From assembly GCF_024223415.1 (NCBI RefSeq), contig NZ_CP100500.1: 64,000 nucleotides of DNA. The stretch is one strand, 5' to 3'. Positions 24,265 through 34,906 of the stretch are shown here, piece by piece. A program made the translations under genes and the position numbers. Source of the DNA: Escherichia coli (GTDB taxonomy: Bacteria; Pseudomonadota; Gammaproteobacteria; Enterobacterales; Enterobacteriaceae). Under the pieces are notes generated by a model. It was not told the origin of the DNA. It did no database searches and saw nothing but the letters and a program-made list of their open reading frames with translations. The first letter of the stretch is position 1; each line of letters opens with the position of its first letter.

Positions 24265-24678
24265 TCAGATGGTTTTCAGTATGCGATCGATGTCGCCGTC
24301 ATCGCCCTGGTTTGTGCCATCGTATGCCATGCCAGCTGATACGGCTTTCGGGCTGTGCATGTCCATAAAGTTTTCAAAGGCTGAAGTAAGCTCTGGTGCA
24401 ACCTTCGGGCGTTCCTGCTCTATGGTCATGCTAAGGATGCTTTTAGCCGTACCAACATCGATACAAGGCACGTTAGCCATTGCACGTAACAGCGGCTGGT
24501 AGTCGTCAGATTCATGAAGCGCCATAATCGCATCAGCGCGCGGCTTGTCCTGTTCTTCCAGTTTGTTGAGTCGGTGTATGGCCTCGTAGGTTGATAAACC
24601 TCTGTCAGCCATTGCCCGCGCTTCGGCTTTAAATTTACTCGCCAGCGGTAGCTTCATGATACTTTCATTCGTTGCCAT
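24265..24678 (-). CDS. Hypothetical head-module protein (137 aa)
   Basis: ORF directly downstream of the D-like gene in the same operon; acidic C-terminus; no recognisable domain. Confidence 0.5.
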   Translation of the reverse strand: MATNESIMKLPLASKFKAEARAMADRGLSTYEAIHRLNKLEEQDKPRADAIMALHESDDYQPLLRAMANVPCIDVGTAKSILSMTIEQERPKVAPELTSAFENFMDMHSPKAVSAGMAYDGTNQGDDGDIDRILKTI

Positions 24679-25037: not shown

Positions 25038-26093
25038 TTAAGCAATTTTGACGGTAACAAATTTGCGAATATCTGCCGGTACCGGCTGCGGTGCGCTGTG
25101 CGTCTGCACGTACTCAATCGCCGGATCGCCGTCCTCAATCCAGTTTTTCGGGTAGTACATGTTTTGCGTTGCGCCCGTTCTTACCGCTTCCTGATCCATA
25201 ATCGCACCATATGCCACCAGCCCTTTATTGTTGGTGTTACCCAGGACCAGCAAATCAGGCTCAAGGAAATATTTTTCGGTGCCGTCGCTGTCAGTGTATT
25301 TGCCGGAATAGACGATAAGGGCCAGATCACCAAGATAGCCTTTAAAGCTCACCACTTCGCCCAGGTTTTTACAGGCCAGCTCGGCGGCGGATTCTGACCC
25401 ACGGGAAAGATCGTACAGTTCACGGAATTTTTTAAAGCTGCGTAATGTGCGCCATACCTCACCGCCCATAATCATGACGTTGGCGGGGCAACCTGCCTGA
25501 TCAGCATAAAGCTCGATGTCATAGATTGGGTCGTGCATGTCTTTATCCTGCTGGGACCATTTTTTACCACTGGCCTGCTGTATGATGCAGTTTTCCGGTA
25601 TTTTCCAGTCGATTTCATAGCGTTCTATGCCTTCGCCCTCAATGATGTTTTTTCCGGTCGTTACCGCATTCACCGCCAGCCATTCAACACGCGCTTTAAT
25701 GGCGTTTACCTGGCGGCGCATGTTGCCAGTAATCAGGCGCATACGGCGATAGGTTGGGTCGTTAAGCTGTGCCGGATCTTCTCCAGCCATGCGCATGATG
25801 GTCTTTGTTGGATCGATTTCGTGCTTTGGCTTCATGTAGCCTGGTTTAATCGTGCTGGTTTCGTACCCTTTATCGCGCTGGACCTGACTACCCACCATAG
25901 GAGAACAGAACGCAGACATCGTAACCTCTTCAATGTCCAGGGTGTCCAGCATGATGTTTTGGGTGTTGAAGGTCGCCACGTTCGGGAAAAACAGCGTGGT
26001 AAACAGCGGACTAAATTTAAATTCCGAAATATCCCCGCGATTCAGGTACGCGAAAAGCTGGTTAGTTGTAAGTGCCGTTGCTTTGCCTGTCAT
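25038..26093 (-). CDS. Major capsid protein, lambda gpE family
   Basis: 351-aa ORF with many lambda gpE identities (PGYMKPKHE, DPTYRRMRLI, VVSFKGYLGDLALIVYSGKY, VLGNT, YPKNW..GDPA, SAP). Confidence 0.85.
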   Translation of the reverse strand: MTGKATALTTNQLFAYLNRGDISEFKFSPLFTTLFFPNVATFNTQNIMLDTLDIEEVTMSAFCSPMVGSQVQRDKGYETSTIKPGYMKPKHEIDPTKTIMRMAGEDPAQLNDPTYRRMRLITGNMRRQVNAIKARVEWLAVNAVTTGKNIIEGEGIERYEIDWKIPENCIIQQASGKKWSQQDKDMHDPIYDIELYADQAGCPANVMIMGGEVWRTLRSFKKFRELYDLSRGSESAAELACKNLGEVVSFKGYLGDLALIVYSGKYTDSDGTEKYFLEPDLLVLGNTNNKGLVAYGAIMDQEAVRTGATQNMYYPKNWIEDGDPAIEYVQTHSAPQPVPADIRKFVTVKIA

Positions 26094-26299
26094 TATTCAC
26101 CTCCGTGAACCTGATTGATACCCAGCGCCGCACGTAAATAGGTGCGCACCTGCCAGCCTGTTGACGGCTCAACCATCGCCAGCGGATCAAGTCCTGCCGC
26201 AATGCCTGCTTTTACATTCTGCTGGTGGCGTTCCTTGAGCGCCTCCACGATGTCGGGGCTTATGTAGACCGTCACCCCGCCTTTTTTCTCTTCTGCCAT
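26093..26299 (-). CDS. Hypothetical protein translationally coupled to the capsid gene (68 aa)
   Basis: ORF whose stop overlaps the capsid gene start; no recognisable domain. Confidence 0.45.
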   Translation of the reverse strand: MAEEKKGGVTVYISPDIVEALKERHQQNVKAGIAAGLDPLAMVEPSTGWQVRTYLRAALGINQVHGGE

Positions 26300-26508
26300 A
26301 GTCAGAAATTCCTCTTTGACTTAAAAAATCATAACTGGATGTTCATCCAGTCCTGATTATAATCATGATTGCATTTTGTGCAATAATGTTGAGTTGTGTT
26401 GCAAATTATGAAATGATTATCCCGATCATGTGTGTCAGTGCACCATAAAAAACCTCGTATACAAAAGCCCGATAAGCCCCCTGTGACCTTATCGGGCTTT
26501 TTTTAGGC

Positions 26509-26532
26509 GTAAAAAAGCCGGATTGCTCCGGC
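26509..26532 (-). terminator. Rho-independent terminator after the PerC-like gene
   Basis: Minus-strand hairpin GCCGGAGCAATCCGGC followed by a T-run. Confidence 0.5.
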
Positions 26533-26539
26533 TGTGTGC

Positions 26540-26812
26540 TCACTTCTGCGGGTAGTTGCGCCATATTGCTTTGCCAATACCAGCTATCCCCATTTGTTTT
26601 TCAGTGCGATTAACTGACCTTTTCAGAGCGCCTAAATCATCCGGCGGCTCCGGTGGCCTCTGTGCCTTCCGTGAACATTCCAGCCGTCGCATTGCCACCT
26701 GTGCGCGTTCCTTGTCTGTCTCCACCAGCATCATCACTTCACCCCATCGCGCGGCCGCCCTCCGGTAAAATCCTTTCGCCTCCAGTTCCTCCGCTATCCG
26801 GTCATGTACCAT
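26540..26812 (-). CDS. PerC-family transcriptional regulator-like protein
   Basis: ORF 26540..26932; likely start MVHDRIAEELEAKGFYRRAAARWGEVMMLV, resembling PerC-family proteins; assignment from memory of the family. Confidence 0.5.
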   Translation of the reverse strand: MVHDRIAEELEAKGFYRRAAARWGEVMMLVETDKERAQVAMRRLECSRKAQRPPEPPDDLGALKRSVNRTEKQMGIAGIGKAIWRNYPQK

Positions 26813-26822
26813 CGTCACCCCC

Positions 26823-27233
26823 TCAGAACGGAATATCATCACCGTAAGGGTCATCGCCTCCCGCTGGTGGCTGATTACCCTGTGTGCCTGTGGTTTTGCG
26901 TCTGTTCCCGCCAGGACGTGCCGCACGGGCACTGATTACGCTGTCTGCGATGACCTGCCAGCCCTGCCGCGTTTCGCCGTTCTGGCCTGTCCACTGGCTT
27001 ACCTGCATGTTACCCGCCACGCTCACCAGTTCGCCTTTGTGGTGTCTGGCCAGTGCGTCGGCCTGTCTGCCAAACGCCAGGACGGATAACCACATCGTCG
27101 CCGTTCCGTCATCTGCCTGGCTGCATGGCAGGGGAACCGCCATACTCGCCATCGCCATTTGTGTCCCTTTGCTGGTCTGTTTTGTCTGCGGGTCGTCCAC
27201 CAGCCGCCCGTAAGCCGCTATCTGTGCTGTCAT
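26823..27233 (-). CDS. Single-stranded DNA-binding protein (SSB)
   Basis: 136-aa ORF with OB-fold-like N-terminus, Gly/Pro-rich linker and the canonical acidic SSB tail ...GDDIPF. Confidence 0.8.
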   Translation of the reverse strand: MTAQIAAYGRLVDDPQTKQTSKGTQMAMASMAVPLPCSQADDGTATMWLSVLAFGRQADALARHHKGELVSVAGNMQVSQWTGQNGETRQGWQVIADSVISARAARPGGNRRKTTGTQGNQPPAGGDDPYGDDIPF

Positions 27234-32117: not shown

Positions 32118-32409
32118 TATTGCCCCCTTTCGTTTCTTAAAGAGTTATTTCGTGTTCTATTGCGTTGGTATGTGTCTGATTGTGTCAGGGTGATTCAGAG
32201 TTGGCAAATGTTGGTGGCGGGTATTTTACAGAAACGGGGTTATTTTAATAAAAAACATTTTAATTCAGTATTATGCAAAGGCATAAAATCTCGTTTTATG
32301 CCTTTTTTCTCACTATTTAAAGCGTTATTCGCTAATGTATAAAAAACCAGTTGAGCATTAAAAATCAGCAACTTATAAATCTGTATACTTTTTGGCCTCT
32401 TGTTCGTGG

Positions 32410-32443
32410 TTGTTTCACGTTGTTGCGTATTGTTTCACGTTGT
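32410..32443. repeat. Two direct repeats TTGTTTCACGTTGT between int and alpA
   Basis: Identical 14-mers at about 32410-32423 and 32430-32443 in the int-alpA intergenic region. Confidence 0.4.
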
Positions 32444-32491
32444 ATCTGTGCACTTATCCAGTATGCGCATACTGAAAAAACACGAAAAAAA

Positions 32492-34679: not shown

Positions 34680-34721
34680 GTCATACCACTCGCCTGATTA
34701 TTTTTAGCTATGTTGGATTTT

Positions 34722-34748
34722 GCCACGGTTTATACCGTGGCTTTTTTT
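34722..34748 (+). terminator. Rho-independent terminator after allE
   Basis: Hairpin GCCACGG-TTTATA-CCGTGGC followed by TTTTTTT; a REP-like palindrome follows. Confidence 0.55.
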
Positions 34749-34906
34749 GTAACATTGCCTGATGCGCTTCGCTTATCAGGCCTACATGATCTCTGCAATA
34801 TATAGAATTTGCGCGATTTTCAGGAAGGATATAGTGCTCATGCAGCATCCGGCATGAGCACTGCGCTCTTATACGAAATAAATCGCATCCGCTTTAAAGG
34901 TAAGGG

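Follow-up and report, generated by a model that had tools for sequence, protein, structure and literature searches.

In phage lambda, a separate promoter directed against the main operon gives OOP, a 77-nt antisense RNA that covers the 3' end of cII and stops at an intrinsic terminator, a hairpin with a U-run. P4 uses an RNA for immunity, and this small RNA (CI) arises by processing of a sense leader. The bidirectional Rho-independent terminators of enterobacteria combine a GC-rich stem-loop with an A-run and a T-run, allow free replacement of the stem and lie between convergent genes. Operon I of SaPI, a satellite capsid/packaging operon with an SOS box at its promoter and a coupling to the helper-inducing signal, is under LexA control according to Ubeda et al. 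2007, as cited in PMC6092414.

The locus analyzed here lies between a PerC-family gene and a capsid operon in the window (the whole 64,000-nucleotide stretch of DNA that was analyzed), and it resembles each of these systems in part. Its hairpin T2 has the stem-loop, the two runs and the replaceable stem of a bidirectional terminator, but it is placed between two co-directional operons, its only convergent partner is a predicted transcript of ~80 nt, and it moves with a swappable capsid cassette. As in SaPI operon I, a putative SOS box is found at the promoter of a satellite capsid operon; here, however, the site is predicted from sequence, the setting is Gram-negative in both host and island family, lambda E/D/Nu3-like genes take the place of SaPI cpm/terS, and two further palindromic operators are present. 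Similar to OOP, the predicted RNA would be short and would run against the main operon from its own promoter to a hairpin and U-run, although it would stop before perC and overlap only a possible read-through RNA. With P4 CI it shares the status of a small RNA in a satellite/P4-like element that has a P4-type integrase, but it matches no covariance model, would start at a divergent promoter instead of being cut from a sense leader, and has neither a conserved seed nor seqA/seqC-like targets.

All components are of known kinds and the terminator/sRNA candidate alone is ordinary, but the combination of parts in this satellite family is not described in the literature searched, where we also found no report of LexA, sRNA or transcript maps of the capsid operon. 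We read 26300-26540 as the control region of a lambda E/D-like capsid operon in a phage-inducible chromosomal island (PICI) of the EcCICFT073 type, and the explanation as a whole, set out below, seems to us slightly more probable than its negation. EcCICFT073-type islands are model Gram-negative phage satellites that are being engineered as delivery vehicles, and how their capsid/interference operon is switched on is not described in the literature searched. The map of promoter, predicted SOS box, two operators, divergent promoter and two-way terminator, conserved across E. coli, Salmonella and Edwardsiella elements, predicts LexA dependence of the operon, an operator-binding regulator and a short antisense transcript, and shows cassette boundaries useful for engineering.

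The island, its capsid operon and the operators

The island is assigned to the EcCICFT073-type PICIs because of its gene content and annotation, the comparison of insertion sites and the fact that CFT073 itself carries the interval, an identity supported by published descriptions (PMC6092414, PMC6739421). It encodes int, alpA, primase/helicase, PerC, gpE/gpD-like genes and the TerS-like Rpp, within the ~12-13 kb of this type; in the window it is roughly 12 kb long, with all genes on the minus strand:

minus strand: integrase; AlpA-like HTH protein
minus strand: Icd-like protein; primase/helicase (both named from the annotation of close relatives)
minus strand: SSB; PerC
26540-26812, minus strand: position of this PerC-family gene, the upstream neighbor of the gap studied here
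minus strand: lambda gpE-like capsid protein; gpD-like decoration protein
minus strand: protein resembling the C-terminal part of a head protease/scaffold
minus strand: TerS-like winged-helix protein

The 137-aa protein encoded after the decoration gene (24268-24678, minus strand) aligns with head-maturation protease profiles in their C-terminal part only (PHROG 53, positions 495-568 of 583), which suggests a Nu3-like scaffold without the protease domain.

In the window the island is inserted between allC and allE. Related islands are found between phoQ and roxA, the site of CP-933C/OI-51/Sp7 and of EcCICFT073 (PMC3378721, PMC6092414), and CFT073 has the same interval upstream of c1499/c1500 (NC_004431.1, 1385209-1385461). 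In ATCC 25922 the region is located at about 1713970-1714390 of NZ_CP117235.1. The c1498-c1501 capsid genes are dispensable for transfer with phage 80 (PMC10460865). The interval is present in 596 of the 5426 complete E. coli genomes; blastn against 50,697 phage records gave no match, and the representative genomes, scanned with the capsid protein and with its alignment, gave zero relatives. Relatives were those collected through the 68-aa protein and the capsid protein, by exact-protein look-ups and from IMG/VR, and they include Salmonella and Edwardsiella elements as well as several lineages without assignment. Just beyond the island, in the chromosomal gap allE/glxK, two enterobacterial sRNA families matched at the Rfam gathering score: STnc480 at 34686-34752 (minus strand, 87.6 bits) and ES036/CssrF at 34778-34820 (minus strand, 38.1 bits).

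The gap had been described as free of ORFs, and this is essentially right, since the two mechanical ORFs that overlap it are not annotated in RefSeq relatives. The coding features around it are:

26093-26299, minus strand: 68-aa ORF, conserved first gene of the capsid operon, with its ATG at 26299
26315-26310, minus strand: AGAGGA, Shine-Dalgarno sequence of the 68-aa ORF, within the feature 26297-26315
26225-26356, plus strand: mechanical ORF of 43 aa
26406-26564, minus strand: mechanical ORF of 52 aa

The main content of the interval lies on the minus strand and was absent from the first-pass annotation. It consists of a capsid-operon promoter, two palindromic operators and a LexA-box-like site, of which the first three are:

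26356-26383, minus strand: P_cap, predicted sigma-70 promoter, with -35 TTGCAC at 26383-26378, a 16-nt spacer and -10 TATAAT at 26361-26356
26368-26384, both strands: O1, perfect 17-bp palindrome ATTGCA-N5-TGCAAT, covering the -35 and spacer of P_cap
26398-26414, both strands: O2, 17-bp quasi-palindrome GTTGCA-N5-TGAAAT, a degenerate copy of O1 that lies in the spacer of the candidate divergent promoter P_anti

P_cap, with a predicted start at ~26349, is the top sense-strand PWM match in 9/9 lineages/variants, where it follows the pattern TTGCnn-16-TATAAT or TAAAAT; the TATAAT is kept in 76 of 77 variants, and all divergent lineages have TATAAT or TAAAAT. O1 is the sole perfect copy in the window, and its half-sites are conserved in all lineages. 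Its position, about -35 to -19, suggests that the protein binding there would be a repressor. O2 is centered 30 bp from O1, upstream of P_cap; it is present in every lineage, with a diversity (pi) of 0.012, and the Edwardsiella element (L007) has a perfect second copy, that is, two perfect operator palindromes. O2 is presumed to be the binding site of a dimeric regulator. A quick inspection by eye for IHF, Fur and Fis sites turned up no more than chance would give. Co-occurrence does not support PerC as the protein that binds the operators: L007, L009 and L010 retain O1/O2 but have no PerC gene next to them. The 68-aa protein is a candidate autoregulator for O1/O2. Its family is small (PHROG 3255) and always precedes the gpE-like capsid gene, and no Pfam family was found for it. 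The AlphaFold model has a beta-alpha-alpha topology (pLDDT 75), and comparison of the fold with the PDB gave no significant match (the best, the TacA2 antitoxin, at E 5). The strand-helix-helix model is reminiscent of ribbon-helix-helix DNA binders.

Two predicted terminators at the edge of the capsid cassette

Two hairpins lie between the capsid-operon promoter and the PerC-family gene:

26463-26504, both strands: T2, predicted bidirectional intrinsic terminator
26516-26533, minus strand: T1, predicted intrinsic terminator, AGCCGGAGCAATCCGGCT plus a T-run, assigned to the upstream perC/replication operon

The first-pass annotation had reported a strong plus-strand hairpin, GCCCGATAAG-N11-CTTATCGGGC followed by T7, and had raised the possibility of a two-way terminator; the structure is as described, and the second suggestion is well supported too. 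T2 consists of AAAA (26463-26466), GCCCGATAAG (26467-26476), an 11-nt loop (26477-26487), CTTATCGGGC (26488-26497) and TTTTTTT (26498-26504). As plus-strand RNA it folds at -19.3 kcal/mol (z -3.8), as minus-strand RNA at -24.2 kcal/mol (z -6.3), and for either strand 0/200 shuffles were equal or better. The plus-strand tail is the canonical U7 and the minus-strand tail is UUUUGUAU. A simple terminator scan skipped T2, the loop limit of the scan being 8 nt.

Six divergent lineages have a GC-rich hairpin at the corresponding position, with stems unrelated in sequence:

T2 stems in the six lineages: GCCCGATAAG; GCCCCGCC; GCCCAAC; CCCCCAACC; GCCCCCC; TCCCCCGG

That the position is kept with different stems indicates that the hairpin is more than chance. 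The equivalents in relatives all fold as hairpins (-12.6 to -27.6 kcal/mol); each, in the gene orientation, has an A-run of 6-9 on the 5' side and a shorter T-run of 2-6 on the 3' side. The plus-strand tail thus contains 7-8 U in its first 8 nt in every lineage, compared with 3-7 of 8 on the gene strand. MAFFT alignment of the T2 hairpins left the stems out of register and was not used for pair counts. The stems and runs show no change in a set of 78 distinct close variants (stem diversity ~0), whereas the loop, with pi 0.24, is about neutral and the outer flank also varies freely. With runs on both sides, the structure kept and the better U-run on the plus strand in every lineage, T2 appears to be a bidirectional intrinsic terminator, conserved by structure and not by sequence, with predicted termination in both directions and the window's plus strand as its canonical orientation. 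A U-rich tail that is usable for sense transcripts is present as well, and part of the conservation of T2 may reflect sense termination only.

T1 (-12.6 kcal/mol, z -3.6) is found ~15 nt from T2, between it and the PerC-family gene. It has no A-run at all, so it is read as a terminator for the sense direction only. The two hairpins part company among relatives. In many genomes homology stops exactly where T2 ends on its outer side (query position 214, or 26503); Sakai Sp7 has T1 without T2, followed by a different, HK97-type capsid cassette; T1 and T2 are ~190 nt apart in ATCC 25922 and L012, where there is an insert; and L007 and L010 have T2 with no T1 nearby. From these comparisons we conclude that T2 marks the outer edge of the capsid module and moves with the capsid cassette, not with perC, and that T1 would stay with the upstream module. 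Together they resemble a pair of terminators for transcription units that converge, T1 serving the perC operon and T2 serving a plus-strand unit that comes from the capsid side, with a sense back-up in addition.

In a case of cassette swapping, T1 of Sakai Sp7 (L004, 8395-8686) leads into an unrelated upstream region and the HK97-type capsid/portal/terminase genes of a cf-PICI, and O157:H7 strain 1130 carries a lambda E/D-type module at the chromosomal site of Sakai Sp7. The ~190-nt insert between T1 and T2 (ATCC 25922 = L097, 3720-3895; also L012, L016 and L131) recurs in many islands, carries repeats of CATCATCATCATGA and GATGATGG along with A/T-rich runs, and may be an origin or a packaging-related sequence.

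A candidate divergent promoter

The convergent unit that T2 would end is predicted to start within the operator region:

26389-26417, plus strand: P_anti, candidate divergent sigma-70 promoter, with -35 TTGAGT at 26389-26394, a 17-nt spacer and -10 AATGAT at 26412-26417
26424-26504, plus strand: predicted non-coding RNA of ~80 nt, from P_anti to the U-run of T2

The proposal of a plus-strand small RNA in this gap remains plausible on account of P_anti, but the promoter element first put forward for it does not. The hexamer TTGACT is indeed present at 26316-26321; as a -35, however, its best -10 partner is GATGTT, and it reads TCGACT in 24 of 77 variants. We rejected it because it lacks both a usable -10 and conservation. 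TTGACT is the complement of AGTCAA, which stands immediately 5' of the Shine-Dalgarno sequence AGAGGA of the 68-aa ORF.

The place of P_anti, with a predicted start at ~26424, is the best antisense PWM match in 8/9 lineages/variants at the same aligned position, with the pattern TTGnnn-17-AATnAT and scores of 9.9-12.4, similar to those of the capsid promoter. The -35 TTGAGT is kept in 75 of 77 variants, although the flanks on both sides vary at or above the four-fold-site rate. The -10 AATGAT is fixed at positions 1, 2, 3 and 6 and free at position 4, the pattern expected of a -10 hexamer. The predicted RNA would be 58-92 nt long across relatives, and L010 has no P_anti at the aligned place. 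CFT073 (L098, 340-349) carries a rare -10, AATGTT, found in 1 of the 77 variants and weaker than AATGAT, and because of it CFT073 may under-report an antisense RNA. Taken together, the promoter and terminator make a short plus-strand transcript from P_anti to T2 moderately likely.

The -10 AATGAT overlaps O2 and does not begin with the usual T; it could therefore be conserved for protein binding and not for promoter function. The same two properties feed the strongest of the other explanations, in which T2 is a mere back-up sense terminator behind T1, the plus strand is silent, the A-run only strengthens sense termination, and the hexamers of P_anti are parts of the site of the O1/O2 regulator. 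The minus-strand fold of T2 is the more stable one (-24.2 against -19.3 kcal/mol), and, read in the sense direction, the stem of every lineage is followed by a T-run, as this explanation would have it. On the other hand, the A-run exceeds the T-run in length and purity in every lineage despite full replacement of the stem, and the neighboring T1 does without an A-run. TTGAGT sits between the two operators, outside both palindromes, and is conserved amid neutral positions; the T at 26417 is fixed outside O2 though its neighbors vary; and the 17-nt spacing is kept in 5/6 lineages. We consider a silent plus strand unlikely, while regarding it as a serious contender.

A LexA-box-like site and the predicted mechanism

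The last element of the minus-strand control region covers the predicted start of P_cap:

26333-26352, both strands: LexA (SOS) box-like palindrome, AACTGGATGTTCATCCAGTC, of the form CTG-N10-CAG

At 18.8 bits this is the best site in the 64-kb window, on a matrix built from 30 E. coli LexA sites known from the literature and not taken from a curated file; on the same matrix known LexA boxes score 7.2-25.8, with a leave-one-out median of 18.2. In 62 of 66 distinct relatives a LexA-like box of 17-24 bits starts exactly 3 nt after the -10, with CTG and CAG fixed, while the inner positions change without compensation and sometimes break the pairing; the box of L010, CTGTATATAAATTCAG, is near-canonical. 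It is absent from L007 (Edwardsiella) and from the L013/L014/L100-102/L175 lineages. The site predicts that LexA represses the capsid operon. No mention of LexA control of Gram-negative PICIs was found in the literature searched. In EcCIMP1, a different PICI, mitomycin C alone did not induce alpA (PMC11773190), and the SOS input may thus be limited to the capsid operon or be minor.

The palindrome could instead be a hairpin of the leader RNA, a 5' stabilizer or an attenuator with the downstream T-run. The terminator scan does list it as a weak minus-strand hairpin of 8 pairs followed by ATGATTTTTT, and the leader folds at -18.7 kcal/mol (z -3.6). A hairpin would not, however, account for fixed CTG/CAG ends with uncompensated inner changes, such as those of L009 (CTGGATGCACATACAG) and L010, the T-run is 3 nt away from the stem, and no other place in the 64 kb matches the LexA matrix as well. 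A leader hairpin in place of a LexA site therefore appears improbable to us; the two roles are not mutually exclusive.

If the interval is the control region that we propose, T1 would end the upstream perC/replication operon, and in a resting lysogen LexA and the O1/O2-binding protein would keep the capsid promoter closed. The SOS response, by which helper prophages are induced as well, would lift the LexA block, in parallel to SaPI operon I. T1 and T2 would insulate the capsid operon against upstream read-through, while P_anti would fire a short non-coding RNA (~80 nt in the window), and T2 would stop this divergent RNA before antisense entry into perC, ssb and the primase gene. The role of the RNA, if any, would be local, as an antisense to read-through, through polymerase collision or through a coupling to the capsid promoter by supercoiling.

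Symmetric -10 elements that drive divergent transcription have been described in bacteria, and the plus-strand RNA could start at the palindromic -10 GATTATAATC, which would make P_cap half of a symmetric bidirectional promoter. The plus-strand TATAAT at 26358-26363 would give a start at ~26370 and a ~135-nt RNA to T2; it is kept in 76 of 77 close variants, and TGGATG-16-TATAAT scores 10.0, nearly equal to P_anti. Nevertheless, the plus-strand hexamer decays in divergent lineages (TATAAA in L005, TTTAAT in L013/L014) where the sense hexamer stays TATAAT/TAAAAT, and the -35 is poor and lies inside the LexA box, so that we regard this start as improbable.

The body of the RNA predicted from P_anti (26424-26463) has a pi of 0.161, compared with 0.158 and 0.226 at the four-fold sites of the capsid gene and the 68-aa gene, respectively. 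It is unalignable between lineages, with no similarity, and only CCTC at 26453-26456 is fixed. Since the body is neutral, the sequence of the RNA is probably immaterial. Rfam at the gathering score over the whole window returned nothing relevant to the interval, and at E<=10 over 26000-26900 no relevant match, the C4/CI family included. Among 16 island start regions searched for trans targets, the best duplex (-26.2 kcal/mol) was not significant against shuffles (-20.7 +/- 3.0 kcal/mol). The analogy with the P4 immunity RNA, drawn in the first-pass annotation, finds no support in these results. With a neutral body and no Rfam family, an RNA of the P4 CI kind, acting in trans through its sequence, is unlikely. 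A trans-acting role in general, whether as a CI-like immunity RNA or as an Hfq-dependent sRNA on helper-phage or island mRNAs, has on its side the terminator hairpin with U7, the single-stranded A-rich 5' part and the short conserved CCUC (26453-26456) that adjoins the hairpin, but we hold it very improbable, as there is no conserved single-stranded seed in a body wholly different between lineages, no covariance match, no significant island duplex and, unlike P4 CI, a divergent promoter instead of a processed leader. A bolder reading, which we consider improbable, makes P_anti, the RNA and T2 a dedicated insulator/antisense device that, with LexA and the O1/O2 protein, forms an SOS-gated two-promoter switch for the timing of capsid-protein production in Gram-negative PICIs, or lets the RNA act in trans on helper-phage transcripts; in both versions PICIs would gain their first described regulatory RNA.

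Two more LexA-box-like sites are found in the int-alpA intergenic region, upstream of alpA, at 32333-32352 (18.1 bits) and 32444-32463 (13.5 bits). They are 111 bp apart, with one half-site CAT/CAC instead of CAG, and three related islands share the pair, as does the Sakai Sp7 cf-PICI (L001-L004). Between int and alpA there is also a direct repeat, CAACGTGAAACAA x2 (32405-32445, minus strand), at which AlpA or the integrase arm may bind.

Immediately past T2, reading in the sense direction (26435-26456, minus strand), a conserved GAGG is followed 6-8 nt on by ATG/GTG; the fixed CCTC of the predicted plus-strand RNA is the complement of this GAGG. The mini-ORF that follows has 2-10 codons (ATGGTGCACTGA in the window), and L005 and L009 have AGGTGC..ATGCCTGAAT in common in this region.
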